Positions 3,843 through 64,000 of a stretch of DNA of 64,000 bases are shown here, piece by piece. Below the pieces are notes generated by a model. It did not search any database. It was not told where the DNA came from and saw only the letters and a program-made list of their open reading frames with translations. Location: assembly GCA_028712255.1 (NCBI GenBank), contig JAQTQJ010000003.1:7173-71172 (forward strand), read 5' to 3'. Each line of letters begins with the position of its first letter. Position 1 is the first letter of the stretch. This DNA is from Candidatus Omnitrophota bacterium. Lineage in GTDB: Bacteria > Omnitrophota > Gorgyraeia > Gygaellales > Profunditerraquicolaceae. The position numbers and the translations under genes were made by a program.

Positions 3843-4301
3843 CTATCCCGAAACTTCGGGATCATCTTGTTTATGCTGGTAAATTATCTCAAGCTCTATA
3901 ACAATACCCGCCTGCGGCTGGCCTTCTAAGGTCTCAAAAAGAACATTAGATTTGATATTGGTGTCTTTGGCAAAACCACCCCGGGTGTAATCAGCCATAA
4001 GGGCCTTCTCCATATCGCCTAACAAGCTGTTTAAGAGTGAATCTGTGGGCTGAAGATCAGCTGCGTCCTGCCTCATCCAGACATCCAGATAAACTGTGAA
4101 TCTGCAGGTGGTAAAAGGATTTGGGCTGGGTTCTTTTTCTTCAGGCCCGGCGTTAATCACAATGCAGGGCACATTCAATAAAGAATTGCCAGACTGCCTC
4201 CAGCGCTGGACACTGGCGATATCATTGTGATAGCCGTTTGAGATTAAAATAGTTTCAAGCGCTGTCTTTAAATTTTCTAAAATGCTTTCTCTGACGGTCA
4301 T
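3843..4301 (-). CDS. Tail terminator / head-tail joining protein (lambda U-like position)
   Basis: 152-aa ORF between the capsid and major tail genes. Assigned by position only. Confidence 0.3.
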   Translation of the reverse strand: MTVRESILENLKTALETILISNGYHNDIASVQRWRQSGNSLLNVPCIVINAGPEEKEPSPNPFTTCRFTVYLDVWMRQDAADLQPTDSLLNSLLGDMEKALMADYTRGGFAKDTNIKSNVLFETLEGQPQAGIVIELEIIYQHKQDDPEVSG

Positions 4302-4903
4302 ACTTTATTCAGCGTTTTTTCAATAGATTTGTTTAAAATCTGGATGCGCTCGTTTTGCATCTCATCCCAGGTTTTGTAGAACATCAGTCTCGGCCGGATG
4401 CGCACGCTGTTCTTTAAGACAAAAAGAGGCAAGAGTTCGCGCAGTTTCTTTTTAACCTTGGCTAGGAAGGTCTTACCTCTCAGTTGAATAGGCACAACAT
4501 TTTTAAGCAATCTCGGCTGGCGGTATTGTTTTTTTAACCTGCCGTCTGCTGTAAATAATTCTTTGCGCGCCGATAAAGGCACTGCAAGCTTTCCGCCTCC
4601 TGGATTCTTAAGCGTTGCCCCTTCCTCGTGCATGCGCGCAATCTTTGAGTCTGAAAAAATCACCATACCCATGCCTTCAATATTCTGGGATAATAAACTT
4701 GCCCGGCTGAAGTGCGTGAATATGCCGTGCGGCCTGCCCTTTATTCCCGGAGGGCCCTGCAGCCGTTCCTGACGGAATGTTTTTAAGAACTTGCGGCTGA
4801 TGTGATCCATGCCGTCGGCAATCTCGTATTTAAGCTCCTTCGGAAACATCCTCAAAGCCCGCTCAAGATTCCTGGTATTTATCTCTAACGTTAATTCGCT
4901 CAT
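4298..4903 (-). CDS. Head-tail connector / tail completion protein (lambda Z/FII-like position)
   Basis: 201-aa ORF with start/stop overlap to its neighbours. Assigned by position only. Confidence 0.3.
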   Translation of the reverse strand: MSELTLEINTRNLERALRMFPKELKYEIADGMDHISRKFLKTFRQERLQGPPGIKGRPHGIFTHFSRASLLSQNIEGMGMVIFSDSKIARMHEEGATLKNPGGGKLAVPLSARKELFTADGRLKKQYRQPRLLKNVVPIQLRGKTFLAKVKKKLRELLPLFVLKNSVRIRPRLMFYKTWDEMQNERIQILNKSIEKTLNKV

Positions 4904-12694: not shown

Positions 12695-12979
12695 TTAGCC
12701 CTCTTGCTCTATAGACTTAAAATTATAGCCGCATTCTTTGCAGCGGTGATACCTGACCGGCGGATGACTCGCATACCAGCGGATCTTCTTTGATCCGCAT
12801 CTTGGACACCTAAGTGGAATAAACCTGACAGCATAATCATCGCCTGTATTCCCGGGGCGACCGGCGCTTCTTTTTCTAACATCAACATTTCCTGAATGAT
12901 TTTCATTTTTTAACCAATTCTCTTTTCTCTCAAGCCATCGCCCCATCAAAGCCAAGAGCCCTCTCTTTTGCGGATCCAA
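12695..12979 (-). CDS. Small zinc-ribbon protein
   Basis: CPRCGSKK...CKECG. Its start overlaps the 3' end of the large terminase gene. Confidence 0.3.
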   Translation of the reverse strand: MDPQKRGLLALMGRWLERKENWLKNENHSGNVDVRKRSAGRPGNTGDDYAVRFIPLRCPRCGSKKIRWYASHPPVRYHRCKECGYNFKSIEQEG

Positions 12980-14796
12980 GCCTCTCTTGAATGGCCTTGG
13001 ACTTCAGTTTTCGGCTGATAAACTCTTGTCGAATCATCTTTGCGGATATTTAATGCCCGGATAATGTCTGCGGCAGCCAAGGCATAAACCTCTGCATCGA
13101 GAAAGTGATTTGCTGCCGCCTCTTTCTTTTTCTGCCACACTTCCTTTGCCCGGCCAGTCGTGCGGTTACGTATTAATATTTTGTGTTCGGAAGTAAACTG
13201 AGTTAAATACTCCTCGTTCGAATTTTTAAAGATGTGCCATTTAACCGGATCCCGAGAAGTGACGAGCCGATTGATTTTGTCTTTATACTGCGTTACGTTC
13301 AAATGCCATAAAACAAGGCCTCCTGGAATAACTGCCCCGGTCCGCGAATTGATATCTATTTTGTTTGCACGATAGAAACGACCTCCGCTAATTTCTTCAA
13401 CTCCCTTGATCGCTTTAGTCTTATCGGCCCAGTGACGGCAAAACCGGTATACCTCATCGGTTTTAAATCCCGAATCGATACATGACATATAGACAGTGAG
13501 AGTTTCCGCTGAACTTAATCTTTTATATTCCGTTTTGAACAATTCCTCTACTAGGTCATCCCAATACTCAACTCGTCCTGCGCGGATGAGCCATGATTCT
13601 TCATAATATCCCCAGCCTCGTATGACGAAATAAAAATGATCCTTCTGCACGTCAACGCCTGCAGTCAAAACCAAAACATCATCCGGAACAATTCCCTCGT
13701 CATAATCCCGGGCGAGATTGCGCACCTTATCTACCGTTGTCTCTTCAATCTTTTCTTCCCAAACCTCCGCAAGCCACGAATTGACGAAATTCATCAACAG
13801 CTCAATGTAGTCCTTAGACTTTAAGAACTCTGCTGCGATATCGCTCCATGTAAGCCAAGGAGAATAAAGAGAGCTGATCCAGAAACCGCGGTTTCTGTTT
13901 TTCTCTTTCTTCTCCGGAATCCACTCTCCGCTTAACATTATCTTTTGCTTCTGCGCGTCTTCTATCTTTCTGCCGCAATAGAAACATTCATACCAGGCAA
14001 GCCGCTCGTTTTTAATTCTCTCCGGCGATGATTCCTCTCTCGGCCATTTGATTTGACCAAATACCAAAACTTGCAATTTCCCGCAATGAGGGCAGGGAAC
14101 GTAAAATCTCCTTTGATCTGACTTCTCATATTCCCGGAAGATATAACCTTCGCGTGTAGTAGGCGTTGAAACCTTAATTGTCTTTTTATTCCAAAAAGTC
14201 TTCTGCCTCTCTGAAGCAAGTTTTATCGGATCTGCCTCGCGGCCCGAAAACTTCGGATATTTATCAACCTCATCCAGAAATAGATACCGGATAGGCCTTG
14301 ACGCAAGATCAGCCGGGCTGTTTGATCCTGCGAAATACAGGATCATGCGGTCAAAATGATATTCGAGTTTCGTGATATCATCGAGATTCTCGGGGAGATA
14401 TTTATTTAATACCGGCGATGCTTCAATCATCGGGCGGACTCTATTATACGAAACGCTCTTTGCATCATCGGCCCGCGGCGAGACCATAAGCGTCGGACCC
14501 GGGTCCTGGTCGATTACATAACCCAGCATATTATACATTGCCTCAGTCTTACCAACTTGAGATGCAGCCATAACTGTTATCTCATCAACAAACGGATCCG
14601 TGAAAGCATCCATGATCCCTTTTAAATAGGGTGTCCTTGTTGTCGACCACTGCCCGGGCTCTGCGGAAGTCTTAACATCAAGGCGTCTGAACGTATCCGC
14701 CCACTCGCTCACCGTCATCTTATTCGGCAAAACCCACTCTTCTGCCGCATAAGGCAATACGGTGCTAACTATCGCTTTTGCTATTTTTATCCCCAT
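12946..14796 (-). CDS. Terminase large subunit (lambda GpA family)
   Basis: 616 aa. N-terminal ATPase region with a Walker-like motif (VGKTE) and a C-terminal nuclease region. Gene order TerS-TerL-W-portal. Confidence 0.8.
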   Translation of the reverse strand: MGIKIAKAIVSTVLPYAAEEWVLPNKMTVSEWADTFRRLDVKTSAEPGQWSTTRTPYLKGIMDAFTDPFVDEITVMAASQVGKTEAMYNMLGYVIDQDPGPTLMVSPRADDAKSVSYNRVRPMIEASPVLNKYLPENLDDITKLEYHFDRMILYFAGSNSPADLASRPIRYLFLDEVDKYPKFSGREADPIKLASERQKTFWNKKTIKVSTPTTREGYIFREYEKSDQRRFYVPCPHCGKLQVLVFGQIKWPREESSPERIKNERLAWYECFYCGRKIEDAQKQKIMLSGEWIPEKKEKNRNRGFWISSLYSPWLTWSDIAAEFLKSKDYIELLMNFVNSWLAEVWEEKIEETTVDKVRNLARDYDEGIVPDDVLVLTAGVDVQKDHFYFVIRGWGYYEESWLIRAGRVEYWDDLVEELFKTEYKRLSSAETLTVYMSCIDSGFKTDEVYRFCRHWADKTKAIKGVEEISGGRFYRANKIDINSRTGAVIPGGLVLWHLNVTQYKDKINRLVTSRDPVKWHIFKNSNEEYLTQFTSEHKILIRNRTTGRAKEVWQKKKEAAANHFLDAEVYALAAADIIRALNIRKDDSTRVYQPKTEVQGHSREAWIRKREGSWL

Positions 14797-19652: not shown

Positions 19653-21419
19653 ATGATCATAAAACCTAAGACAGATAAAACAACCAACAAAAAACGATAC
19701 GTTATCTATACGCGCTGCTCCACTGACGACCAGGCCCAGGGAGACTTTACCACCTTGGACAGCCAGGCTTATCACTGCAAGAACTTGCTGGACGCCTTTG
19801 GATACGAGCTCGCCAAGATAGGCAACAAAGGCCGAATAGACGATGACGGATACTCCGGCAAGGATCTCAACCGGCCCGGCATCCAGACGATTATCGACCA
19901 TGTGCGTAAAGAAACTGCCCCTTTTGATGGAATAATCTTCTTCCGCCTTGACCGCCTAACCCGGAATACCCGTGACCTCTACTGGCTTATTGATCTATTC
20001 AACTCCAAAGAGATCTCTTTCGTATCCGTACGCGAGAATCTTGACAGCTCAACCGCCATAGGCAGAGTGGTCATTGGTATACTTGGGATCTTGTCAGCCT
20101 TTGAGCGGGAACTCACCGGCGAGCGTGTGAAAGCCTCTTGCATAGCGCGTGTTCGCCAAGGCAAGTGGGTTGGCGGGATGCTGCCTTATGGATATAAGCT
20201 TATACCAGACGGACAACCTCTGCCTAACGGCCGCCAGCCACACAAGATCGTCCTTGATGAGAAGACATCTCTCCATCTTAAAGCTATCTGGGAGATGGCC
20301 GCAGATAATAAATCGCTTACGCAGGTAGGTCTTGAACTACATAGGCGCGGGCTAAAAACTCTAAACGGCAAGGAATGGCGCAGACAGGTTATCTCAAGGA
20401 TCTTAAAGAATCCCTTCTATAAGGGCTACATCCAGTACAGCGGAGAGTATCATAAAGGCACTCATCCTCCAATTGTAGAGGAGTGGCTCTGGGAAAGGGC
20501 TAATAAGATATTGAATGCAAGACTCCCCGGCCACAACTTTGTGCAGAAGGAAAGATTCTACGAATACCTCCTAGCCGGTATCATTAGATGCGGCGATTGC
20601 GGAAGCCATATGGTCTGCAATTTCTCAGGTGGCCGTGGCCGGAGAAAGTTCTTTTATTATGAATGCAGCCGCTCCAAACAGGCCCTGGGATGCAAGGCTG
20701 CGCGCATCTCAGCAACCACCTTTGACAAAGCCATAATCGATTATTTCAGGCGGGCATCCAAGGACAAAAACATTATCATAAAGGCCCTTGGGGACGCAAT
20801 GCTTGAGTCGCAGGCAAAGCTTAAAAAGATAGAAGCGGATCTTAAAGAAAAGGAAGCCAAACTAAATGGCTTCCGGCACCAGGCCAATAAGCTGCTGGAA
20901 TTGGCCATGGGTAACACAGTAACCAAAGGCTCAACCTATAAAGACAAAATGGCCGAATTGGAAACTGAGATCGTAAAGCTGGAAGACGAAATAGACAAGC
21001 TGCAGGCCCAGAAGAGAGTCACCAGCATAAACGCCTCCTCCGGTGAGCTCGTATACCGTACCATGGGCTTTGCCATCCAGCACCTCGAAGATGCCCCTCC
21101 GGAAGCCCAGAAAAGCCTTATTCAGGCCTTGATTAAGGATATCTATGTCTATAGCGACCGGTTGGTAATCAATATGTATATTGATGAGCCGCTGGAAAGC
21201 ATCCTCCCCACCGAAATAGCCTCTACAAACGAAAAGCGCCCTACAGAAGCCTGTAAGGCGCTTGCATCCACTGTATCGCTACCCGGAGTTTCGGATAGTT
21301 GTCAACAATGGCTGCCCCGCTTGGACTCGAACCAAGATAGTCAGATCCAGAATCTGAAGTCCTACCGATTAGACGACAGGGCAAATGTGTTAGAAAGTAT
21401 ATCGTGGATAAAAAGTTAA
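19653..21419 (+). CDS. Large serine recombinase (phage integrase)
   Basis: N-terminal resolvase catalytic domain (YVIYTRCSTDDQ), a recombinase domain, a zinc-ribbon-like Cys cluster (CGDCGSH...C) and a C-terminal coiled coil. 588 aa. Confidence 0.85.
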   Translation: MIIKPKTDKTTNKKRYVIYTRCSTDDQAQGDFTTLDSQAYHCKNLLDAFGYELAKIGNKGRIDDDGYSGKDLNRPGIQTIIDHVRKETAPFDGIIFFRLDRLTRNTRDLYWLIDLFNSKEISFVSVRENLDSSTAIGRVVIGILGILSAFERELTGERVKASCIARVRQGKWVGGMLPYGYKLIPDGQPLPNGRQPHKIVLDEKTSLHLKAIWEMAADNKSLTQVGLELHRRGLKTLNGKEWRRQVISRILKNPFYKGYIQYSGEYHKGTHPPIVEEWLWERANKILNARLPGHNFVQKERFYEYLLAGIIRCGDCGSHMVCNFSGGRGRRKFFYYECSRSKQALGCKAARISATTFDKAIIDYFRRASKDKNIIIKALGDAMLESQAKLKKIEADLKEKEAKLNGFRHQANKLLELAMGNTVTKGSTYKDKMAELETEIVKLEDEIDKLQAQKRVTSINASSGELVYRTMGFAIQHLEDAPPEAQKSLIQALIKDIYVYSDRLVINMYIDEPLESILPTEIASTNEKRPTEACKALASTVSLPGVSDSCQQWLPRLDSNQDSQIQNLKSYRLDDRANVLESISWIKS

Positions 21420-35186: not shown

Positions 35187-35230
35187 AGAAACCGTTTCTA
35201 TTTTTTGTTTAAAAAATAGAAACGGTTTCT
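35187..35230. repeat. Palindromic extragenic repeat, copy 1
   Basis: agaaaccgtttctattttttgtttaaaaaatagaaacggtttct, then a T-run. Shares its core with the copies at 37270 and 39848. Confidence 0.7.
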
Positions 35231-35235
35231 TGTTT

Positions 35236-37260
35236 TTAGTCGCTAAAATAATCCTCTATATGTTCAAAAAAGGCCTTATTTCCGCTTCTTTTTTCTCCAA
35301 TAATATCTTCGATGTCTATATCATCCAGCTCATTTGAGCCACCTGAGCTCTGCACATCTACGAATTTATTAAGCAGATTGCCCTGTTCAAGGAACCGGGA
35401 AACCTGAGTAAAAACCGATCCACCATTGTCCATAAAACTCCTAGGAGATCGGTCAATATGCGGTTTTAATAAAAACAAGTTTACTTTGGCGCGCGTTGAG
35501 GCAACATAAAACAGGCGCCTTTCCTCTTCAATCTCATCCTCTGTTTCTAACGACAGGTACGACGGGAGGTGCCCTTCTGCAACATAGATTAAAAATACCG
35601 TGTGCCATTCCAGGCCTTTTGCCGAATGTATAGTTGATAAGGTAAGCGGGGAGTCAGTGTTATCTTTTTTACCAGCTTCTATCAAAGCTCTCTCCGGTGG
35701 CTCTAAAGCCATGTCCACCAAAAATTGTTCCACTGTTTTATAACGTTGAGCTATTCTTAAGAGTGAATCCAAGTCATTCAAGCGTTTATTAAAATCATCG
35801 TATTTGATTTTTAATAGCGGCTGGTAATACGCAAGAAACTTTTCAATAATTTTATCCGGCGTGTCAATTTGACAATTCAGATCTTTTAATATTTCAAATA
35901 ATTTCTTAAGCTCGCTATTTCTTTCCACTAACTCCTTAAAATCACCCTTATCTACAATCATTTGAATAATTTTTGCAGCGGTGACTGGGCCGATTTTAGG
36001 AATCAGTAAAAGAGCGCGTAACCAGCTAACCTGATCGTAGCTATTATAGGCAATGCGTAAATAGCTCATCAAGTCTTTAATGTGGGAAGCCTCCACAAAT
36101 TTCTGTCCTCCGTATTTTACAAAAGGAATATTACGGGAGGCCAGCTCGATTTCCAGGTCATTGGAATGCCAGCCTGAACGGAAAAGTACGGAAATATCTT
36201 TTAAAGCAACCCCCTCCTCTTTCAGCTCCAAAATCTTATCTGCCACAAAAACCGATTGAGAATTCTCGTCGGGACAATCAACAAAAACAGGAATATTCCC
36301 GTCTTTTTTCTTAGTATAAAGGTTTTTCTCAAATTTTTCTTTAGCTTGGGCAATAACCGCATTGGTTAAAGTTAAAATCGGCTGCGTTGAACGGTAATTC
36401 TCCTCAAGGGTAATAATTTTGGTGCCTTTAAAAATTTTAGGGAAATCAATGATATTTTTAAAATTTGCTCCGCGGAAAGAATAAATACTCTGGGCATCAT
36501 CGCCAACCACCATAATATTGGTATGGTCTGCTGCCAAAAGGCAAGCAATATGCGCCTGAAGCTTATTGGTATCCTGATACTCATCAACCATGATATATTT
36601 ATATTTGGAAGATATGCTCACACGCGCACCTTCATGATTGCTTAACAGATTTTTTAAGAAAACTAATAAATCATCATAATCCAGGAGTGATTTTTGGCGC
36701 TTATATTTAGTATATTCGTTACGAATCTTTTTTATCTCTTCGGTAAATTCCATAAACTGCGGGTATTCATCGTAAAGCACATCGCTGATATCTACGGATT
36801 TATTTACACTTTTAGAAATTGCTTCTAAAATGGCATGTTTTCGCGGAAAGCGCTTTTCGGATTTATGAAAACCCAGCTGTGTACGTACCAAATTTACCGC
36901 ATCCTCTGCATCCGCCTGATCGAGAATCGTAAAATTATTGCTTAGCTCTAGAAGCTTGGCATATTTCCTTAAAATCATATTGGCGAATGAATGAAATGTC
37001 CCGCCGGAAACATTTTTACAGCGCTCATCTAAAAGAATGCTTGCCCGCCGTAGCATCTCTTCAGCTGCCCTGCGCGTAAAAGTAAGCAATAAAATCTGCT
37101 CCGGGCTTACTCCTTGTTCAACCAAATAAGCTACCCGGTGCACTAAAACGCGAGTCTTACCGCTCCCTGCTCCTGCAATAACCAAGTGCGGGCCACAAAT
37201 GGATTCCACTGCGGCAAGTTGGGCGGGATTTAATTCTTTATGATAATCAATTTTTTTCAT
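35236..37260 (-). CDS. UvrD/PcrA-family DNA helicase
   Basis: Walker A (GAGSGKTRVL) and helicase motifs throughout. 674 aa. Confidence 0.85.
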   Translation of the reverse strand: MKKIDYHKELNPAQLAAVESICGPHLVIAGAGSGKTRVLVHRVAYLVEQGVSPEQILLLTFTRRAAEEMLRRASILLDERCKNVSGGTFHSFANMILRKYAKLLELSNNFTILDQADAEDAVNLVRTQLGFHKSEKRFPRKHAILEAISKSVNKSVDISDVLYDEYPQFMEFTEEIKKIRNEYTKYKRQKSLLDYDDLLVFLKNLLSNHEGARVSISSKYKYIMVDEYQDTNKLQAHIACLLAADHTNIMVVGDDAQSIYSFRGANFKNIIDFPKIFKGTKIITLEENYRSTQPILTLTNAVIAQAKEKFEKNLYTKKKDGNIPVFVDCPDENSQSVFVADKILELKEEGVALKDISVLFRSGWHSNDLEIELASRNIPFVKYGGQKFVEASHIKDLMSYLRIAYNSYDQVSWLRALLLIPKIGPVTAAKIIQMIVDKGDFKELVERNSELKKLFEILKDLNCQIDTPDKIIEKFLAYYQPLLKIKYDDFNKRLNDLDSLLRIAQRYKTVEQFLVDMALEPPERALIEAGKKDNTDSPLTLSTIHSAKGLEWHTVFLIYVAEGHLPSYLSLETEDEIEEERRLFYVASTRAKVNLFLLKPHIDRSPRSFMDNGGSVFTQVSRFLEQGNLLNKFVDVQSSGGSNELDDIDIEDIIGEKRSGNKAFFEHIEDYFSD

Positions 37261-37269
37261 TTAAATCTA

Positions 37270-37315
37270 GGGACCGTTTCTATTTTTTGTTTAAACAAAA
37301 AATAGAAACGGTCCC
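37270..37315. repeat. Palindromic extragenic repeat, copy 2
   Basis: gggaccgtttctattttttgtttaaacaaaaaatagaaacggtccc. This is a perfect 46-bp palindrome. Confidence 0.7.
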
Positions 37316-37353
37316 TTGTTTTCGGTTGGGAATCTATAAGTAGTTTTTTAGCT

Positions 37354-37896
37354 TTATTTTATATATGCCCGGATGATTTTTTGCTCTGCGATAGGCCGGT
37401 CTTCTGCGCCAACCGGAGTATTTTCAATTTTCTGCACTACATCTAAGCCCGAAACCACCTCTCCGAATATGGTATGGCGCATATTTAACCAGGGAGTTTG
37501 AGCGCAGGTAATAAAAAACTGGCTTCCGTTAGTATTGGGCCCGGAATTGGCCATTGCCAAAATTCCCGCTACATCGAATTTCGCTACTGGAGTCACTTCA
37601 TCTTCGAAGGGTTTACCCCAGACTGATTCTCCTCCCATCCCGGTTCCGGTAGGGTCTCCACCCTGAATCATAAAACCTTTAATCACCCGGTGAAAAATTA
37701 GCCCGTTATAATAACCTTTTTCTACCAATTTCACAAAATTTTCACAAGCCTTGGGAGCGATATCGGTTTTAAGTTTAAGTTCGATATTTCCCTGATTAGT
37801 CTCTAGCACTACAATTGTTTCTGCCATAGCAAAACTCCCTCCAAAGCAAAATGTTAAACATAAGGTTAATATTAATACTGATATTTTGTTTTTCAT
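37354..37896 (-). CDS. Peptidyl-prolyl cis-trans isomerase, cyclophilin type (secreted)
   Basis: Signal peptide and the FHRVIKGFMIQGGDP cyclophilin signature. Confidence 0.85.
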   Translation of the reverse strand: MKNKISVLILTLCLTFCFGGSFAMAETIVVLETNQGNIELKLKTDIAPKACENFVKLVEKGYYNGLIFHRVIKGFMIQGGDPTGTGMGGESVWGKPFEDEVTPVAKFDVAGILAMANSGPNTNGSQFFITCAQTPWLNMRHTIFGEVVSGLDVVQKIENTPVGAEDRPIAEQKIIRAYIK

Positions 37897-38828
37897 AATA
37901 AGTTATTTCCCTCCTCTTTTTGTTGATTTTCTTCGATAGGTTTATCTAACTTTTCTTCCGCGGGTTTGGGCTCCTCCTGCTTAACTCCTTCAACGGGCGG
38001 CGCTTCTTCTACTGGGTGCCTCGGTTCTTCTATACGCTTATCCTCTTGTATCTGTATAGGTTTTTCTGTTTGTTTAACTTCTTCTACCTGCTTAATTTTT
38101 TCTTCTTTTTTAACCTCTTTTCTGAAATGTGCGATTTCTTCGGCAAAACTTTTTAACCTCTCTTGAGCAGCCTCTAAATCCTTCTCTAGCTGCGAATATT
38201 CCTCATTCAATTTATTAAACTCTGCCTTAGGTATCCATTCACTGATTTTCTCTTTACGGTTAAACTCAGCAATTGTATCCGAATAATCCTTAATACTCTT
38301 GAGCTGTTCTTCAATTTGATGCTTCTGCGCCTGTATCTGATCTTCTTTTAGCCGACAGGCTATCTCTTTTGCTTCAAGGGCTGATTTTAGTTCACGCAGC
38401 TGGCGTGAAAAATTTACATTTTTAGCAAACTCATCCTGCAGTTCTTTTTCTTTAGTTATAAATTTATTGCTTAAATCCGTATTCTCTACCTTTACCTTGG
38501 TCAATTCAGCTTCTGCCTTAGCTACCCACTCTTCCCTGCGCTTTAACTCATCAGAAAACTTCAATTCAGCTTCTTTGGCAACCATAAAAGTAGCATTGCC
38601 TTGCGCATATTCAGATTTCATTTTCTCTATCAGAATTCCCAGATCAACTACCTGACCCTGTAATCGTTGAATTTTCTGCTCCTTACCAATATCCACAGTA
38701 GGCAGCAGCGGATTTTCATTTTTTTTCTTTTTAATAGCTTCGGATTTTGGCGAAGAGAACACTCCAAAAACAGCATAAAGCACCATCCCTGCGCCTAAAA
38801 ATGCCAATATTTGTAATGCCAGTATCAT
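37893..38828 (-). CDS. Membrane-anchored coiled-coil protein
   Basis: N-terminal TM helix, then a long Lys/Glu-rich coiled coil and a Pro/Glu-rich C-terminus. Confidence 0.35.
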   Translation of the reverse strand: MILALQILAFLGAGMVLYAVFGVFSSPKSEAIKKKKNENPLLPTVDIGKEQKIQRLQGQVVDLGILIEKMKSEYAQGNATFMVAKEAELKFSDELKRREEWVAKAEAELTKVKVENTDLSNKFITKEKELQDEFAKNVNFSRQLRELKSALEAKEIACRLKEDQIQAQKHQIEEQLKSIKDYSDTIAEFNRKEKISEWIPKAEFNKLNEEYSQLEKDLEAAQERLKSFAEEIAHFRKEVKKEEKIKQVEEVKQTEKPIQIQEDKRIEEPRHPVEEAPPVEGVKQEEPKPAEEKLDKPIEENQQKEEGNNLL

Positions 38829-39246
38829 TTTAACCTACCTATATTTATTCATCGTCAATATCTTTTATTATATCAAAATTTGGAGAATAAAAAACTGTAA
38901 TTTATTAACTGTAAGTTTTTAGCTTATAGCTTCTCCTAATATATACTATTGACAAACTGGTTAAATAGCGATAAATTATTATTGGGAAAAATAAACATGG
39001 TATTGTAGAAAAAAATACGCGCAAAGGAAGAAATGCAGAACAGCGCAAAAAATCAGGTTCAGCTAAAAACCCTGATTCATGACCCGAATATAAGTTCTAA
39101 TATTCGGGTTTTTCTTTAAGCAGGAATTTTTTCAATTATATTCAAGAAAGGTACAATCATAAGGATGGTGCACTCTGGGCAAAGTCCGTTTACGGTAGAA
39201 GAAGAACATTCTATTTTACGTTACCATTAAATGAAAGAAGGTAAAT

Positions 39247-39609
39247 ATGGCAAAAAAGATCTTAATTATCGATGATGAACCAGATATTCTTAGGCTGGCG
39301 GCAATAAGATTGGAAGCTTCGGGTTATAAACTTACGGAGGCCACTGACAGTGAAAAAGCGCTCAAATTACTGGAGAAAGAAATACCGGATCTGATCCTAT
39401 TGGACTTACTTCTGCCTAAAATGCAGGGGGGAGAATTTTGCAAAAAACTAAAATCTGATACTAGGTTTAAAAACATACCAATTGTGTTTTTTACCGCCAA
39501 TGTAACCGGTATTGCGGATATAGTCAAAGAAACCGGTGCACAGGATTATATAATAAAACCCTTTGAGCCCGAAGAATTACTTTCCACAATCACAAAGTTT
39601 ATACATTAA
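39247..39609 (+). CDS. Stand-alone response regulator receiver domain (CheY-like)
   Basis: DDEPD...D...K receiver residues. 120 aa. Confidence 0.8.
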   Translation: MAKKILIIDDEPDILRLAAIRLEASGYKLTEATDSEKALKLLEKEIPDLILLDLLLPKMQGGEFCKKLKSDTRFKNIPIVFFTANVTGIADIVKETGAQDYIIKPFEPEELLSTITKFIH

Positions 39610-39847
39610 ATCCTCTTAAAAAAATCCCCGCAAATGTGCCGTTGGAACGATATTCTGAACCGATTTGGTTTCAGGTGGGTACCCTCTTCCTAGGCACTCG
39701 TGCCTAAGAAATTATGGGTTCCCGTGAAAATTGTGTTGGTTCAACAATTATCAGTTTTCCAACGTGCACCGCAGGGATATTTAAAAGAACCGTTTCATTC
39801 TAAATGAAGTATAGCACATATTTATAACAGAATCAACCTACCCTGCG

Positions 39848-39907
39848 AAAATCCAGGGACCTTTCTATTTTTTGTTTAAACAAAAAATAGAAAGGTCCCT
39901 GGATTTT
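39848..39907. repeat. Palindromic extragenic repeat, copy 3
   Basis: aaaatccagggacctttctattttttgtttaaacaaaaaatagaaaggtccctggatttt. The stem is extended and carries compensatory changes relative to copy 2. Confidence 0.7.
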
Positions 39908-51081: not shown

Positions 51082-51165
51082 TGCCGGGGGAGGGAATCGA
51101 ACCCTCATATCCTTACGGACGGCGGATTTTAAGTCCGCATCGTATACCAATTTCGACACCCCGGC
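51082..51165 (-). tRNA. tRNA-Leu (TAA), type II with long variable arm
   Basis: Acceptor gccgggg/ccccggc, anticodon loop ctTAAaa, a 15-nt variable arm and T-arm gaggg-ttcgatt-ccctc. Confidence 0.75.
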
Positions 51166-51174
51166 AAAATCATT

Positions 51175-51834
51175 TTAATTAAGAATCGTTTTGCTTTTGC
51201 TCCAACCGTAATCTGAACCCAAACATTCATTAGCCAATTTTATTTTTCTTTCTAACCCAAAACAACCTTTATAATAACAGCATTCAGCAATTTTTCTAGC
51301 GGCCATTTTACCATATTTTAATACCCGGGTATTAGCTGCATTCTTATGTCTTTTACCGCAAACTTTTAATAATCGCTCTACTTTATTATCCAGCCAAGCC
51401 ATAAACTCTGCAGAGCCAGAATAAATCCTTAAACTCCATTGTTCTCTCTTATTAGTCGGATGTATCCAATGACGAATACAACCATCGCCATCAATAACAC
51501 CTCTTAAAAAATCAGGAAAATATTGCCTTGGTATTTTTATCGCACCCAGCGTCAATGATTTTTTTGGCGTAAGCCCGACAGATAACAAAAATTCATAAAA
51601 ACTTATATTCGCAATTTGCAAATGGTAAGATTGATTAATCCTACCTTTATTTTTCACGCCTATCTTATTCACTAAACTAAAACCCGATTTAATCTTCTCT
51701 AAAAACTCTGCGTCTTTTGAGGTTATATCAATATGTCTGCCATCTCTTGATAAACAGCCATCACTGGTAATCAAACCAACTAAATACCAAAGATTTGCTC
51801 CTTCAATTTTTAATTCTTTTCTGTGTGCTAGCAT
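51175..51834 (-). CDS. Free-standing LAGLIDADG homing endonuclease (two-motif, monomeric type)
   Basis: Two LAGLIDADG motifs, LVGLITSDGCL and LRGVIDGDGCI, separated by ~95 aa. 219 aa. Lies between tRNA-Leu and tRNA-Cys. Confidence 0.75.
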   Translation of the reverse strand: MLAHRKELKIEGANLWYLVGLITSDGCLSRDGRHIDITSKDAEFLEKIKSGFSLVNKIGVKNKGRINQSYHLQIANISFYEFLLSVGLTPKKSLTLGAIKIPRQYFPDFLRGVIDGDGCIRHWIHPTNKREQWSLRIYSGSAEFMAWLDNKVERLLKVCGKRHKNAANTRVLKYGKMAARKIAECCYYKGCFGLERKIKLANECLGSDYGWSKSKTILN

Positions 51835-51852
51835 CTTTCAAAAAAGTTTTAA

Positions 51853-51923
51853 GGCGACGAGCGGATTCGAACCGCTGAATAGTTCTTTTGCAGAGAACTG
51901 CCTTACCACTTGGCTACGTCGCC
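51853..51923 (-). tRNA. tRNA-Cys (GCA)
   Basis: Acceptor ggcgacg/cgtcgcc, anticodon loop ctGCAaa and T-arm agcgg-ttcgaat-ccgct. No CCA encoded. Confidence 0.8.
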
Positions 51924-54646: not shown

Positions 54647-55504
54647 TTATTTTCCTCCTTTAATAACACCAACTATGCGTTCTAAATCTTCCTGCGAATA
54701 AAATTCGATATTGATATGCCCGCGTTTTTTTCTTTTACTTATCCTGACCTTAGTGGCCAAGGCATGTTGAAGCTGTTCTTCAAGAATTGCCACAAGCGGT
54801 TCACGAGTGCCTTGACCGATACTTCTTTTTATTGAGCTAGGCCGTTTACTTTTTATCAGATTCTCCAGCTCGCGCACCGAGAGCCCCTTGGCAATGGTAT
54901 CCTGCGCAAGCCTTCGCTGTTGGTTCTCGTCCTCAATCTCAAGTAATGCCCTACCGTGTGCAAAACTAATCCGGCCCTTTTTCATCTCCCCCTGAATTTC
55001 ATGAGGAAGTTTAAGCAGGCGTAAAGTGTTAGTAATGGACACTCTTGCTTTACCTAAAACTTCACTGATTTTTTCCTGAGTAACTTGGAATTTATCAATT
55101 AAGTGTTGATAAGCATGCGCTTCTTCAATGGGATTTAATCCTTCCCTCTGGATATTTTCAATCAAAGCTAATTCAAGAGAATCCTGGTCGCTGACCTCTC
55201 TAACAATAACTGGTATCTCTTTTAATCCCAGCAAACTAGAGGCGCGAAATCTTCTTTCTCCGGCAATCAATTCATAATTGTCACCTCTTTGCCTAACCAA
55301 AAGCGGCTGAATAACACCTTTCTCTTTGATTGATTGCGCCAGCTCTTCAATGCTTTGCTGATCAAAATCTTCACGCGGCTGAAAAGGATTAGGTTTTATT
55401 TGTCCAGACTGGACATAAATAATCTCTTCTTTACGTGTTGTAGCATCAACCACCTTCTCAGGTATTAATGCACCCAAACCCTTTCCTAAAGCTCTTCTCT
55501 CCAT
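54647..55504 (-). CDS. parB: Chromosome partitioning protein ParB/Spo0J
   Basis: ParB box GERRFRAS, an HTH and a C-terminal dimerisation region. Start taken at MERRALGKGLGAL (55504). Confidence 0.85.
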   Translation of the reverse strand: MERRALGKGLGALIPEKVVDATTRKEEIIYVQSGQIKPNPFQPREDFDQQSIEELAQSIKEKGVIQPLLVRQRGDNYELIAGERRFRASSLLGLKEIPVIVREVSDQDSLELALIENIQREGLNPIEEAHAYQHLIDKFQVTQEKISEVLGKARVSITNTLRLLKLPHEIQGEMKKGRISFAHGRALLEIEDENQQRRLAQDTIAKGLSVRELENLIKSKRPSSIKRSIGQGTREPLVAILEEQLQHALATKVRISKRKKRGHINIEFYSQEDLERIVGVIKGGK

Positions 55505-55517
55505 TAAGCAGCTCCTT

Positions 55518-55567
55518 CCCATAAGGGAACACCGGCGCAATTCAAATAAACGCCGGGTGTAACTTAT
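55518..55567 (-). promoter_or_regulatory. Conserved hairpin-plus-RBS leader element, copy 2 (upstream of parB)
   Basis: cccataagggaacaccggcgcaattcaaataaacgccgggtgtaacttat. Same architecture as 46813-46863, with compensatory stem changes. Confidence 0.5.
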
Positions 55568-56328
55568 ATTTGTAAGCCTAAAATTTCTCTGCTCAACTCT
55601 TCATATTTCTGAGCGCCTAAAGAGTCTTTATCATACAAGGCAATCGGCTTACCAAAACTCGGTGCTTCGGTTAAACGAATATTTCTAGGAATTACTGTAT
55701 TATAGACTTTATCCTTAAAGTGATTGCGCGCTTCCTGAATAACTTCTTTAGTAAGATTGGTGCGAAAATCTGCCATAGTTAAAAGCACGCCTTCAACACT
55801 TAGGGTAGGATTAAGGTTTTCTTTTACAAGTCTAACTGTATTATGAAGTTGCGTCAAGCCTTCTAAGGCATAATATTCACATTGGACAGGAATTATTACT
55901 GAATCAGAAGCACATAGCCCATTAATCGTAAGTAATCCTAAGGAAGGCGGAGAATCAATAATCACAAAATCAAAATTTTCTTTTTCAATTTGCAAAGCCC
56001 TTTTTAATCTATACTCACGGCCAAGCGCCCCAACCAGCTCCACCTCTGCACCAGTTAAGTCTAAATTAGAAGGGGCAAGTAAAAGATTATCAATTGCTGT
56101 TTTTTGTAAAATATCGGCGAGCTTTAATTCTTCAAGAAGAATATGGTATGTGCTTTTTTGAATATCATGTTTATTTATTCCAATACCGCTAGTAGCATTT
56201 GCTTGAGGATCCAAATCAATGAGCAAAATTTTCTTCCCTGCCATAGCCAGGTACGCCGCGAGATTAATCGAGGTTGTAGTTTTACCTACCCCGCCTTTCT
56301 GGTTACAGATTGCGATTATTTTACCCAT
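55564..56328 (-). CDS. parA: Chromosome partitioning ATPase ParA/Soj
   Basis: Deviant Walker A KGGVGKTT. 254 aa. Confidence 0.9.
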   Translation of the reverse strand: MGKIIAICNQKGGVGKTTTSINLAAYLAMAGKKILLIDLDPQANATSGIGINKHDIQKSTYHILLEELKLADILQKTAIDNLLLAPSNLDLTGAEVELVGALGREYRLKRALQIEKENFDFVIIDSPPSLGLLTINGLCASDSVIIPVQCEYYALEGLTQLHNTVRLVKENLNPTLSVEGVLLTMADFRTNLTKEVIQEARNHFKDKVYNTVIPRNIRLTEAPSFGKPIALYDKDSLGAQKYEELSREILGLQI

Positions 56329-58190: not shown

Positions 58191-58415
58191 TTATATTAAG
58201 GGATCATACCCTGAGCGCCGAGAAAAAGGATGGCAGCGCAATAACCTGGCTAACCCCTTACATACTCCTCTTATTATTCCGTATTTTAAAATTGCCTGCT
58301 TAGTATAATCAGAACAGCTTGGTTCAAACCGGCAACATAGCGGCAAAACCGGCCTTAAAAATTTTTGATAGCCTGCTATTAAGGCGATTGAAAAATTTCT
58401 TAGCTTTAAATACAA
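58191..58415 (-). CDS. yidD: Membrane protein insertion efficiency factor YidD
   Basis: [10 protein letters not shown]...RCHPF..GYDP signature. Apparent TTG start overlaps the rpmH stop. Confidence 0.8.
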
Positions 58416-58543
58416 AGCCTTTTCCTGCCTTTGCTCCGTCGGCGCGCTAAAAGCTTTCTACCGGATTTAGAAGCCATTTTACTACGAAAACCATGGCGCT
58501 TTTTACCGACAATGTTTGTAGGTGTCTTTAAATTTTTCTTCAT
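58406..58543 (-). CDS. rpmH: 50S ribosomal protein L34
   Basis: [45 protein letters not shown]. Not in the ORF track, presumably because it is short. Read by hand. Confidence 0.85.
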
Positions 58544-58624
58544 CTTTACCGCTCCTTTAGATTGTTAAATACTTTCGAATTTTGTGAATTGTAACATACA
58601 TTTATTGCAAGGTCAAGTTTTTTA

Positions 58625-58702
58625 TTGACGCCCAAGCATATTGTTGTATAATAACTAACGTTTAACTTTTTTACTTGCAAGGATTTTGGTCTCTGTTATA
58701 AT
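58625..58702 (+). promoter_or_regulatory. Two tandem sigma-70-type promoters upstream of dnaA
   Basis: P1 is TTGACG(58625)-17nt-TATAAT(58647-58652). P2 is TTGCAA(58675)-16nt-TATAAT(58697-58702). Confidence 0.55.
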
Positions 58703-58733
58703 AGCTTTGTTTAAAAAATTTGCAGTAACTATT

Positions 58734-58764
58734 TTATCCACAGATTTATGCAAGTTGTGTATAA
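58734..58764 (+). promoter_or_regulatory. DnaA boxes in an oriC-like region upstream of dnaA
   Basis: Perfect TTATCCACA at 58734-58742 and a one-mismatch box TGTGTATAA at 58756-58764. AT-rich surroundings. Confidence 0.55.
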
Positions 58765-58797
58765 GCTGTTAACTCTGTAGATACGGTTATAAAAACC

Positions 58798-60132
58798 ATG
58801 GTTGAGCTTATTAAGAATTGGGAAGAAGCACAGGTAGATTTAAAGACAAGGATGGGCGATACTATCTTTGCTACCTGGATAGCTCCGCTGAAGTTTTTAC
58901 CTCAAGATAACCACAGTATAAATCTTGAGGCTCCAGACCAATTTTTCAAAGACTGGGTAGAAAAACATTATCTTGAACTTATTCGGGATACCTTAAAACG
59001 TAAGGGCGTGGATAATCTGTTAGTAAAGTTAGTTGTCAGCACCGCTCAAAGCGATTTATCTATTCCTTCTAACAATGAAATCAGTATCAAGAACGCTCCA
59101 TCTGCTAGTTGTATCAATCTTAATTCGCGTTATACATTTGAAAATTTTGTTATCGGGGCTTCCAATAGGCATGCGCACGCCTATTCTTTAGCTGTAGCCA
59201 ACTCACCGGCTAAAACATATAATCCATTATTCATTTATGGAGGAGTGGGGCTGGGAAAGACCCATTTGATCCAAGCTATCTGCCATCAAATAAAAAACAA
59301 TAACCCAACGGGAATAAAAATATGCTATGTTTCGAGTGAAAAATTTACCAACGAGCTTATCGACGCTATAGCGCATCGTTCTACTAATGCTTTTCGCCAA
59401 AAATACCGCAACCTCGATGTCCTTGTTATTGATGATATTCACTTTATCGCAGGAAAAGAATCTACTCAAGAGGAGTTTTTCCACACCTTCAATACTTTAT
59501 ATGATGCTCACAAACAAATTGTATTCTCCTCAGATCGGCCGCCTAAAGAAATTACCAACCTACAGGAACGGCTGATTTCACGGTTTGGGTGGGGCCTGGC
59601 TACAGATGTCCAGCCCCCAGATCTAGAAACACGCGTGGCAATCCTAAAGAAGAAAATTGAACGTGAACCCGTCACGGTTCCCGATGATGTAATATTTTTT
59701 ATCGCTCAATTAATTAAAACCAATATTCGCGAACTAGAAGGCGCCTTAATCAGAACGATTGCCTATTCTTTGCTAGAGGAAGCTCCGGTTACCTTACAAT
59801 TAACTAAAGAGGTACTGAAAGACCTGCTCAAAGAACCTACAAAATTAATTACTGTAGATTTTATCCAACGCTGCGTAGTCGAGGAATTCGGAGTTTCTTT
59901 ACAGGACCTTAAAACAAAAAGACGCAACAAACAAGTTGTGCTTCCACGACAAATTGCTATGTATTTAAGTAGGGAATTAACGGATTTATCTCTCCCGGAA
60001 ATCGGAGAACTTTTTGGTGGCAAAGATCACACTACAGTTTTACACTCTTACAATAAAATCAAGGAAGAGATTATCCAAAACCCGGAGCTAAAAGGAAGGG
60101 TTGAAAAAGTTATTCAAGTTGTTAAACAGTAA
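58798..60132 (+). CDS. dnaA: Chromosomal replication initiator DnaA
   Basis: AAA+ Walker A GGVGLGKTHL, sensor motifs and a C-terminal DNA-binding domain. 444 aa. Confidence 0.95.
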   Translation: MVELIKNWEEAQVDLKTRMGDTIFATWIAPLKFLPQDNHSINLEAPDQFFKDWVEKHYLELIRDTLKRKGVDNLLVKLVVSTAQSDLSIPSNNEISIKNAPSASCINLNSRYTFENFVIGASNRHAHAYSLAVANSPAKTYNPLFIYGGVGLGKTHLIQAICHQIKNNNPTGIKICYVSSEKFTNELIDAIAHRSTNAFRQKYRNLDVLVIDDIHFIAGKESTQEEFFHTFNTLYDAHKQIVFSSDRPPKEITNLQERLISRFGWGLATDVQPPDLETRVAILKKKIEREPVTVPDDVIFFIAQLIKTNIRELEGALIRTIAYSLLEEAPVTLQLTKEVLKDLLKEPTKLITVDFIQRCVVEEFGVSLQDLKTKRRNKQVVLPRQIAMYLSRELTDLSLPEIGELFGGKDHTTVLHSYNKIKEEIIQNPELKGRVEKVIQVVKQ

Positions 60133-60273
60133 TGCCCAAGTTATTAGAATACATTATTTCTCCTAAATATGCCTCAAACAAAGAGTTATGTGCTTGTTAA
60201 CAAAAAGTAGGTTATATTACGACTATTACTGTTTTAAGTATTGAAATATATATAAATAGAAGGAGATTGAAAA

Positions 60274-61368
60274 ATGAAACTTCGAGTAGAAAAAAATCAT
60301 TTAATTAGTGCAATTCAAGCTGTACAAAACATAATTACTTCAAAATCAGCTTTACCTATCCTTTCTAATATTTTAATTGAGACTCAAGGGGCACTTTTGC
60401 GCCTAACAGCAACAGATTTAGATATAGGAATAACCTGTGCAATTCCTGGGGAAATCCTGGAACAAGGTGCGATCACTATTCCAGCCAAGAGGTTTAGTGA
60501 TATAATTAAAGAATTCCCTTTGGATGTAGTTAATATTACTACTAAAAAAAACAACCAGGTGATTATTGATTCAGATATGTGTCAGTTTAAAATTATGGGG
60601 TTGGCTAAAGAGGAATTTCCAAAACTTCCTGAATTTAAAGATAAAAAAGTGATTAAGATTGAGCAGGGTGCTCTAAGACAAATGTTGTCATTAACCTCTT
60701 TTGCTTCGTCATTAGATGAAACGCGTTATGTTTTAAATGGTATTTTATTTAAAATTAATAAAGGAGTATTGGTTTTGGTAGCTACTGATGGTAAAAGGTT
60801 GGCGATTGCCGAGAGAAAATTGGTTGGAGTGGAAGTAGATATCGAAGTTAGTATAATTATTCCTATTAAAACAATCCAGGAATTAAATCGTAATCTTAAA
60901 GATATTGGAGATCTATCATTAGTGATTAGTAGTAATCAAGCGCTTTTTGATTTGGGCTCTGTTGCGGTTGTATCGCGGCTTATTGAGGGAGAATTTCCGG
61001 ATTATAAACAGGTTATTCCCGTAGCATCCGAAAATAAAATAAAAATAGAGCGCAGTCAGTTTTTGTTAGCGGTAAAGCGAGCCGCACTTTTGGCTACGCC
61101 GGATTACCAGGCGGTAAAGCTAGAGGTTTTTAAGAACAAGCTGGTTATTTCTAAGTCTACTCCTGATGTTGGCGAGTTTCATGAAGAGTTGGTAGTAGAG
61201 TATCAAGGAAAAGAGTTGGTGATTGGTTTTAACCCGGTTTATTTAATGGATGTTTTAAAGAGTTTAGATGAAGATGTTGTTAATTTAGAGTTAACCGATG
61301 GTGAAAAACCAGGAGTTATTCGTATTAGTGGCTATATTTATATAGTTTTACCTATGCGGCTTAATTAG
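60274..61368 (+). CDS. dnaN: DNA polymerase III beta sliding clamp
   Basis: Three-domain clamp, 364 aa. RBS GGAG before the ATG. Confidence 0.9.
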   Translation: MKLRVEKNHLISAIQAVQNIITSKSALPILSNILIETQGALLRLTATDLDIGITCAIPGEILEQGAITIPAKRFSDIIKEFPLDVVNITTKKNNQVIIDSDMCQFKIMGLAKEEFPKLPEFKDKKVIKIEQGALRQMLSLTSFASSLDETRYVLNGILFKINKGVLVLVATDGKRLAIAERKLVGVEVDIEVSIIIPIKTIQELNRNLKDIGDLSLVISSNQALFDLGSVAVVSRLIEGEFPDYKQVIPVASENKIKIERSQFLLAVKRAALLATPDYQAVKLEVFKNKLVISKSTPDVGEFHEELVVEYQGKELVIGFNPVYLMDVLKSLDEDVVNLELTDGEKPGVIRISGYIYIVLPMRLN

Positions 61369-61372
61369 AAAT

Positions 61373-61657
61373 ATGGAGCTTTTAAAAAAAACCCTAGATG
61401 AGGTTATGCGCGGGCTTGGTGTTAAAAAAAACAATTCCTCAGTCGGAGATCCTCAAGAATGGTTAAAAAAAGCCTTGACAAAGAAAGAGTTGCAGCATAT
61501 AAAAGTTAAATATTTCAATAAGGGAATGCTTGGTTTAAGTGTTGATTCTTCTGCTTGGCTGTATATTTTAAGCTTAAAAAAAGAAGAATTACTAGAAGGG
61601 TTAAAAAAAGAAAATTCCGGAATCAAAAATATAATTTTCCGTATCGGAGAAGTTTAA
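61373..61657 (+). CDS. dciA: DUF721/DciA-like small protein between dnaN and gyrB
   Basis: 94 aa with the ...GMLGLSVDSSAWLYILSLKKEELLEGL pattern typical of DUF721 proteins. Synteny is dnaN-X-gyrB. Confidence 0.5.
   Translation: MELLKKTLDEVMRGLGVKKNNSSVGDPQEWLKKALTKKELQHIKVKYFNKGMLGLSVDSSAWLYILSLKKEELLEGLKKENSGIKNIIFRIGEV

Positions 61658-64000
<2,343 letters not shown>

Follow-up and report, generated by a model that had tools for sequence, protein, structure and literature searches.

Small palindromic elements such as the Correia elements (100-150 bp, with a TA duplication) have been co-opted for transcription or RNA processing, and the DNA uptake sequences of Neisseria, roughly one per kb, occur as inverted pairs in terminator hairpins at gene ends. 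The known kinds closest to the elements described here are the repetitive extragenic palindromic (REP) and REPIN elements and the bidirectional intrinsic terminators. REPINs are organised as doublets, singlets and clusters (Bertels & Rainey 2011, PMC3116915), and the RAREFAN preprint describes REPIN/RAYT systems as vertically inherited within lineages. Here we analyse four long palindromes, P0 to P3, in a 64,000-nucleotide stretch of a Candidatus Omnitrophota genome (assembly GCA_028712255.1, contig JAQTQJ010000003.1), hereafter the window. We hold with moderate confidence that they are miniature foldback repeats, akin to REPINs or to miniature inverted-repeat transposable elements (MITEs), which double as two-way terminators or 3′-end hairpins.

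Several features of the family recall REP and REPIN elements. Each copy is a short extragenic inverted pair of one short word that can fold into a hairpin, lies in a 3′ intergenic spacer and keeps its arms paired, and the organisation is similar, with doublets in the window and in two relatives (L090 and L011), singlets in two others (L013 and L015) and in phage contigs, and 39-nt tandem arrays in phage contigs. However, the window copies lack a 5′ GTAG, are smaller and are perfectly palindromic; no RAYT was found in the window and 1.2 Mb of loci, an absence that is local only; and the arm spans Omnitrophota and phages of unrelated hosts, unlike a vertically inherited system. With intrinsic terminators the palindromes share a stable stem-loop right after stop codons, an A-tract and a T-tract that would let both strands read as stem plus U-tract, and, as it appears for P0, P1 and P3, a location between transcription units. 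They differ in their 20-30 bp stems with an AT-rich top, the near-identity of the copies, two poor gene-strand U-tracts and the proximity of P2 to a start codon.

Four palindromes form one family

A preliminary description of this DNA had reported three copies, here P1, P2 and P3 in the order in which it numbered them. The window holds four, the missed member being P0 (Table 1). At the three sites already reported the hairpins are indeed perfect, with stems of 20 bp (P1, around a 4-nt loop), 24 bp (P2) and 30 bp (P3), and the outer-stem differences quoted between them are correct, as is the extra outer stem CCAGGG/CCCTGG of P3. The 30-nt core TTCTATTTTTTGTTTAAACAAAAAATAGAA that all three were said to share is present in P2 and P3 but not in P1, which reads TTCTATTTTTTGTTTAAAAAATAGAA; because four central nucleotides are deleted, P1 is not a perfect palindrome throughout and lacks GTTTAAAC.

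The family likeness runs past the perfect stems into unpaired flanks, of which there are two types, AAAACAAG and AAAATCCAG. P1 and P2 have one flank of each type, and P3 carries the AAAATCCAG flank symmetrically on both sides. Outside its perfect stem, P1 has unpaired yet conserved flanks (AAATCC on one side and CTTGTTTT on the other). Read on the gene strand, the unit is 5′-AAAACAAG...CTRGATTT-3′, with AAAACAAG on one side and CTRGATTT on the other in P1 and P2, and the likeness ends at the same flank positions across copies, as expected of discrete units.

A covariance model of six members found exactly four copies in the window at 58-86 bits (P0 58-64, P1 63-72, P2 83-86 and P3 70-72 bits), the next match scoring 20 bits, and neither the model nor pattern searches returned any further copy in the whole 64 kb. 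All four lie within 5.9 kb, with none in the remaining 58 kb; they fill four of five consecutive spacers of at least 40 nt, the host part of the window having about 19 spacers of this length (clustering p of about 0.016, calculated by hand from the spacer list). Four perfect hairpins of at least 18 bp occur in the window, versus none in 20 dinucleotide shuffles, and the 30-nt core had no expected matches in 100 shuffles. Predicted folding energies lie between about -25 and -43 kcal/mol, and the z-scores over both strands between -7.4 and -11.2; per copy they are -40.4 kcal/mol (z -10.9) for P0, -25.8 (z -9.0) for P1, -33.8 (z -10.8) for P2 and -43.3 (z -11.2) for P3. The palindromes are thus a true family, well past chance.

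Gene ends and transcription signals

From 21.9 to 58.2 kb every gene is encoded on the minus strand, and those around the palindromes encode a 5-formyltetrahydrofolate (5-FTHF) cyclo-ligase, NifU, a DUF5981 protein, a UvrD/PcrA-type helicase, a cyclophilin peptidyl-prolyl isomerase (PPIase), a coiled-coil protein, PheT and PheS. The helicase has an identical counterpart in a 'Candidatus Omnitrophica' metagenome-assembled genome. The earlier picture of a hairpin-forming palindrome family at gene ends holds for all four copies, each of which occupies a 3′ intergenic spacer of a minus-strand gene. P0 starts on the last base of the NifU stop codon (34053) and lies in the spacer that leads to the 5-FTHF cyclo-ligase start (33981); in the part of that spacer downstream of P0 no promoter-like site was identified. 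P1 starts 5 nt past the helicase stop (35236) and is followed by a promoter-like site of the DUF5981-NifU unit. P2 starts 38 nt past the PPIase stop (37354), and the base of its stem lies 9 nt from the ATG of the helicase gene (35236-37260). P3 starts 6 nt past the pheT stop (39914) and precedes the promoter of the 6S RNA gene, ssrS. P3 had been placed between convergent genes; instead, the 6S RNA gene follows directly downstream on the same strand as pheT, which puts P3 between the pheST operon and the promoter of ssrS.

P0, P1 and P3 appear to stand at transcription-unit ends, and every copy has its stem between an A-tract and a T-tract. The gene-strand tails of P0 (UUGUUUU) and P3 (UGGAUUUU) are adequate as U-tracts; on the antisense strand the U-tracts of all four copies are good, and a terminator-like scan scored P3 on both strands. 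The promoter-like sites past P1 and P3 are kept in relatives. So is the 6S gene, found at the same place in relative L092 (8389-8548); the spacer upstream of the ssrS promoter and gene is not kept.

The same spacers in relatives

We compared the syntenic region of about a dozen relatives with helicase identities of 65-91%. Gene order is collinear across them; the spacers are not conserved, and close relatives mostly lack the palindromes at the same sites. The spacer between the NifU and 5-FTHF cyclo-ligase genes measures 71 nt with P0 in the window versus 9-10 nt in L090, L091, L093 and L094. After the helicase and pheT genes, relatives have unrelated sequence, small canonical terminators (for example AAAAAGGGCCCTAATTTTTAGGGCCCTTTTT) or other long hairpins. 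Spacers of 36 nt in L116 and 2 nt in L118 separate the PPIase gene from the helicase gene, so transcription would naturally read through the pair there.

Some relatives do carry family members. L090, the closest (helicase 91%), has a variant hairpin, CCAGGGGACGGTTCTATTTTTT, at the P1 site, which joins the two types seen in the window: its outer arm CCAGGGGACGGTTCT is like that of P0 and its top TTCTATTTTTT like that of P1 to P3. A variant also lies at the P2 site of L011 (80%), and L013 and L015 have single arms. From the L090 hybrid and these variants we infer a single family with the ancestral arm GGGGACGGTTCT. Judged by their sequences, P1 to P3, with arms GAAACCGTTTCT, GGGACCGTTTCT and GGGACCTTTCT, are a derived local subfamily. 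The variants in the independent assemblies of L090 and L011 rule out an assembly artefact.

The spacers of these relatives hold other small elements. Between the PPIase and helicase genes, L090 (9855-9990), L091-L094 and L117 share a conserved non-coding block of about 110 nt (GGAGGGGATAATCCTCGATGGCTTGCGCTATC...TCCTCCGTTT...TTAACAAAAAAGGTTA...AAGCATGCCATATGC), which lies past a canonical terminator upstream of the helicase, has no Rfam match and may be an unannotated leader or small RNA; it is missing from L116, from L118 and from the window, where P2 stands. A second small intergenic repeat module, TTCCCGATTRG followed by CCGRAAACAGTTTCGG, occurs at different, non-orthologous spacers. Long gene-end hairpins of 18-26 bp unrelated to the palindromes are found in L117 (3668-3735), L065 (1888-1962) and L090 (15521-15559), several of which are G-rich at the base and AT-rich at the top. 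Gain and loss of long, terminator-like hairpins seems to be typical of the clade.

Arm differences are mirrored

The six Omnitrophota copies each pair without interruption over 20-30 bp, with no internal mismatch. Their arms differ at 10 or more positions, and every difference is mirrored in the partner arm, with none unmirrored inside the stems: they comprise changes in G-run length, replacement of GG by AA, a swap of G and C, one indel each of G and T, three alternative states at the position after TTCT, and ACAAG versus TCCAG flanks. The preliminary description had read such covariation as selection on a hairpin. The observation itself extends to all arm differences, but mirroring alone is no proof of selection on an RNA hairpin, as the same pattern would arise if a folded single strand were copied or if one arm were corrected against the other. 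Sequence beyond the pairing is conserved as well, in the unpaired flanks and in a 12-nt arm shared across distant taxa. In P2 and P3 the symmetry crosses the very centre (GTTT/AAAC), which is unable to pair in a hairpin and thus points to a process acting at least partly on DNA that holds the arms identical, although the central symmetry of the two copies is one shared event and hence weak evidence.

The arm recurs in phage contigs

We searched IMG/VR for the ancestral arm as an inverted pair. The exact 12-mer was found in 6 contigs and the 10-mer GGGACGGTTC in 16, whereas two scrambled 12-mers and the P2-type arm each gave no match in the same search. The contigs range from 30% to 65% GC, and at least some resemble prophages, their capsid and lysin genes being distantly matched in isolate phages, many of them phages of Firmicutes. 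The elements come as doublets, singlets and a 39-nt tandem array, with tandem clusters among contigs L095-L100. They are co-oriented with genes, mostly intergenic and occasionally in-frame within open reading frames (ORFs), and lack U-tracts. No recurrent neighbour gene was seen around them, the genes on either side being assorted structural genes. Near the GGGGACGGTTCT elements of L099 we also noted 24-nt tandem repeats (4180-4480 and 2500-2720) that translate as PLAMTKY repeats.

What stays invariant across these hosts is the 10-12-nt word; the surrounding stems and spacers differ, and the gap between two words varies from 10 to 35 nt. The word often forms the loop of a short stem whose sequence varies between contigs while its complementarity is kept, as in GGAGACAA-GGGGACGGTTCT-TTGTCTCC, GGAATGAG-GGGACGGTTC-CTCATTCC and GCACCGG-GGGACGGTTC-CCGGTGC. 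At 37% of its occurrences the word has flanks complementary over at least 5 bp; in 1000 permutations of the flanks the mean was 12.6% and the highest value 26%.

Searches for known relatives of the elements returned little. No described RNA family in Rfam 15 matched the palindromes at the gathering score, the sub-threshold matches being only generic long hairpins (microRNA precursors and plastid 3′ untranslated-region hairpins), and the phage-contig members had no Rfam match up to E 0.1. BLAST of the phage-type element against isolate phages and plasmids gave no match. Its translated frames had three weak matches among 5.8 billion proteins, so its members are either rare or escape ORF calling. 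A scan for the exact core found nine single, unrelated matches in genome contigs of other phyla and none in metagenome contigs; the AT-rich core is a poor probe, the outer arm being the conserved part. Literature searches yielded unrelated primers only for the arm sequence and nothing relevant for Omnitrophota and palindromes. When the arm was set beside tRNA T-arms, RNase P, tmRNA and CsrA sites, in no case was the likeness convincing.

Other features of the window and its relatives

The first part of the window (1-21419) is a prophage-like block with a GC content of 45-49%, versus about 40% elsewhere, and contains none of the palindromes. At the other end (58200-64000) lies a likely replication origin region, with a change in the sign of the GC skew near 60 kb; just upstream are two ORFs whose translations, by eye, are ParA- and ParB-like. 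Gene turnover has a hot spot in the spacer region around ssrS. In the window a gene for a single-domain response regulator (39247-39609, plus strand) stands between the coiled-coil gene and ssrS; L090 lacks it at this position, and in L094 and L117 the interval past ssrS holds an MgsA-type AAA ATPase. The NifU homologue of L118 (5547-7109) contains an intein with a LAGLIDADG domain, according to precomputed Pfam matches.

Table 1. Positions of the palindromes, associated signals and other features, numbered within the window unless a relative or phage contig is named
Feature	Positions	Strand	Remarks
P0	34006-34053	none	perfect 22-bp stem with 4-nt loop; reads AAAACAAGGGGACGGTTCTCTT / AAGAGAACCGTCCCCTTGTTTT; arm GGGGACGGTTCT
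P1	35181-35238	none	perfect 20-bp stem with 4-nt loop at 35187-35230; arm GAAACCGTTTCT
P2	37263-37322	none	perfect 48-nt palindrome at 37269-37316, 24 bp per arm, no unpaired bases at centre; arm GGGACCGTTTCT
P3	39848-39907	none	perfect 60-nt palindrome, 30 bp per arm, no unpaired bases at centre; arm GGGACCTTTCT
Promoter-like site past P1	35177-35149	minus	TTGAGA-17-TAGAAT, TG extension
ssrS promoter past P3	39836-39808	minus	TTGATT-17-TATACT, extended -10
6S RNA gene (ssrS)	39621-39780	minus	RF00013, 70.5 bits (gathering score 46.4); neighbouring gene outside the repeat
In-frame element within ORF, L098	2983-3031		phage contig
In-frame element within ORF, L100	3140-3200		phage contig
TTCCCGATTRG module, L091	3090-3125
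TTCCCGATTRG module, L094	6650-6700
TTCCCGATTRG module, L090	8085-8130
TTCCCGATTRG module, L015	600-640
gpA-type large terminase	12946-14796	minus	prophage-like block
Large serine recombinase	19653-21419	plus	prophage-like block
tRNA gene	21312-21383	minus	block edge; overlaps end of recombinase ORF
LAGLIDADG_3 free-standing ORF	51175-51834	minus	E 1e-8; between tRNA genes 51082-51165 and 51852-51923
ParA- and ParB-like ORFs	54647-56328		just upstream of origin region
dnaA	58798-60132	plus	origin region
dnaN	60274-61368	plus	origin region
gyrB	from 61658	plus	origin region

Discussion

The preliminary description offered terminators, protein-binding sites and mobile elements as possible identities for the palindromes, without choosing among them. 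The evidence favours a mobile or fast-turnover repeat that is able to terminate transcription, and we would place the family, with middling confidence, among the small, dispersed palindromic repeats that have been co-opted at the ends of genes. Under this preferred reading there would be one foldback repeat of about 48-60 bp, both of whose arms descend from GGGGACGGTTCT and continue into the AT-rich top beginning TTCTATTTTTT. The repeat would be non-autonomous and would insert into, or replace, short spacers, and its local spread may have proceeded through copy-and-paste or through conversion among neighbouring copies. A single-stranded, folded intermediate is likely, in which case the arms would automatically stay complementary. 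Once inserted, the repeat would be transcribed as a very stable hairpin between an A-tract and a U-tract, and could then act as a two-way intrinsic terminator or protect the 3′ end, insulating adjacent transcription units.

Several observations weigh against this reading. At the sole clean comparison of a filled and an empty site, the NifU-FTHF spacer with its gain of about 62 nt, no target-site duplication was seen, and no duplicated word is common to the flanks of the four copies. A tblastn search of the window and the 1.2 Mb of loci returned no Y1 transposase (no match with E below 0.7), although this was a weak test made with an IS608 TnpA sequence as query. Direct repeats together with a transposase had been named beforehand as marks of a simple MITE, and neither was found in the window. 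The distribution of the copies, four in 6 kb and none in the other 58 kb, fits local duplication or conversion of a terminator equally well. As to termination, the 20-30 bp stems are far longer than usual terminator stems, and the gene-strand U-tracts of P1 (UGGAUUUAC) and P2 (UAGAUUUAAAU) fail the criterion of the terminator scan; on the gene strand, P0 and P3 look competent from their sequences and P1 and P2 at best leaky. An efficient terminator at P2 would, moreover, silence the helicase, so P2 could be one only if the helicase is unexpressed. The idea of dedicated bidirectional terminators is likewise a poor fit for P2, whose stem leaves no space for a promoter before the helicase ATG.

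It is nonetheless possible, though rather unlikely, that the palindromes are ordinary, immobile bidirectional intrinsic terminators, alike through local duplication or gene conversion and mirrored through selection for hairpin stability. Their position just past stop codons (0-6 nt away, or 38 nt in the case of P2), the A-tract before and T-tract after each stem, the very stable folds on both strands, the tight clustering, the other hairpins, some of them canonical, that relatives have at the same positions, and the failure of our searches to find a transposase or target duplication all agree with such an origin. Against it, the 12-nt arm, together with its ACAAG flank, is found again at sites that are not orthologous, paired in L011 and L090 and singly in L013 and L015, and its presence in phage contigs of 30-65% GC makes local duplication insufficient; conserved unpaired flanks, symmetry through the unpairable centre of P2 and P3, and the missing promoter space at P2 are also hard to reconcile with terminators alone. 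A role in RNA processing or stability, in which the perfect double-stranded RNA serves as an RNase III substrate or exonuclease block that splits or stabilises polycistronic transcripts and P2 modulates helicase translation, seems improbable for the family as a whole, although for P2 it is a reasonable alternative. Stems of at least 20 bp reach the length of a typical RNase III substrate, P2 lies inside a PPIase-helicase pair that is tight in L116 and L118, the gene-strand U-tracts of P1 and P2 are weak, and the phage relatives are co-oriented with genes and lack U-tracts. Such a role leaves unexplained the conservation of the arm sequence and of the unpaired flanks, as well as the central symmetry.

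The hairpins could instead be cis-acting recognition sites that present GGGGACGGTTCT and its complement to a widespread, sequence-specific partner, such as a HUH/Y1-type nuclease, another recombinase or an RNA-binding factor. The invariance of the word across hosts of 30-65% GC whose stems and spacers differ, its frequent place in the loop of a varying complementary stem (with the excess of flank complementarity over permutations, 37% versus 12.6%) and the absence of scrambled 12-mer pairs all speak for recognition. We nevertheless judge this quite unlikely as an account of the window copies: P1 to P3 have lost the exact word yet stay perfect hairpins, such that pairing and not the word is kept in this genome, and no candidate partner gene was found nearby. 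The variation of 10-35 nt in word spacing excludes a simple dimeric operator. A related proposal, which we advance tentatively and regard as less probable than not, is that the palindromes are degenerate local offshoots of an undescribed cross-phylum family, whose unit would be a short hairpin with the invariant word GGGGACGGTTCT, either in the loop of a varying complementary stem or as an inverted doublet in a 12-bp stem. The breadth of such a family would imply a widely shared partner, perhaps an unknown mobilising nuclease or recombinase or a conserved RNA- or DNA-binding factor, and would take it beyond a lineage-specific terminator repeat.

Other described systems share some of these traits. 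Like MITEs and the Rickettsia palindromic elements, the palindromes are miniature repeats that do not code for protein, have inverted ends, vary in presence between relatives and bring no transposase with them, and the phage-contig relatives can, like the Rickettsia elements, lie in-frame in ORFs. Unlike MITEs, they are below the usual size at 48-60 bp, neither a target-site duplication nor a parent insertion sequence was found, and the window copies are all intergenic. The RNase III hairpins of T7 and the PeSLs of T4-type phages are also repeated, related hairpins that are co-oriented in short intergenic spaces, which fits the phage-contig members, but those families are not known outside one phage group, whereas the present arm spans hosts of 30-65% GC and a bacterial chromosome. 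DNA uptake sequences resemble the arm as 10-12-nt words in inverted pairs within terminator-like gene-end hairpins; they are ruled out here, GGGACGGTTC occurring in the 64 kb only in P0, as one exact pair, and we know of no link between the arm and competence. The flanks AAAACAAG and CTRGATTT do not correspond to the RYYYAAC and GTTRRRY of an integron attC site, and around the copies stand syntenic housekeeping genes (pheST, PPIase, helicase and NifU) in place of a cassette array beside an integrase. Nor do the copies form a CRISPR array, being inverted repeats 1.1-2.6 kb apart with genes between them instead of direct repeats regularly spaced at about 60-70 bp.

A lineage-specific palindromic repeat that doubles as a terminator would be a further example of a well-known theme, and its practical value is modest, as a marker of transcription-unit boundaries in an uncultured phylum. 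The comparisons made here show how fast intergenic hairpins turn over between close Omnitrophota relatives. The sole aspect likely to surprise a specialist is an arm common to Omnitrophota and to phages of unrelated hosts; if it does reflect a shared recognition partner, the family would represent a hairpin module of a new kind, mobile or regulatory, whose host range is unusually wide.

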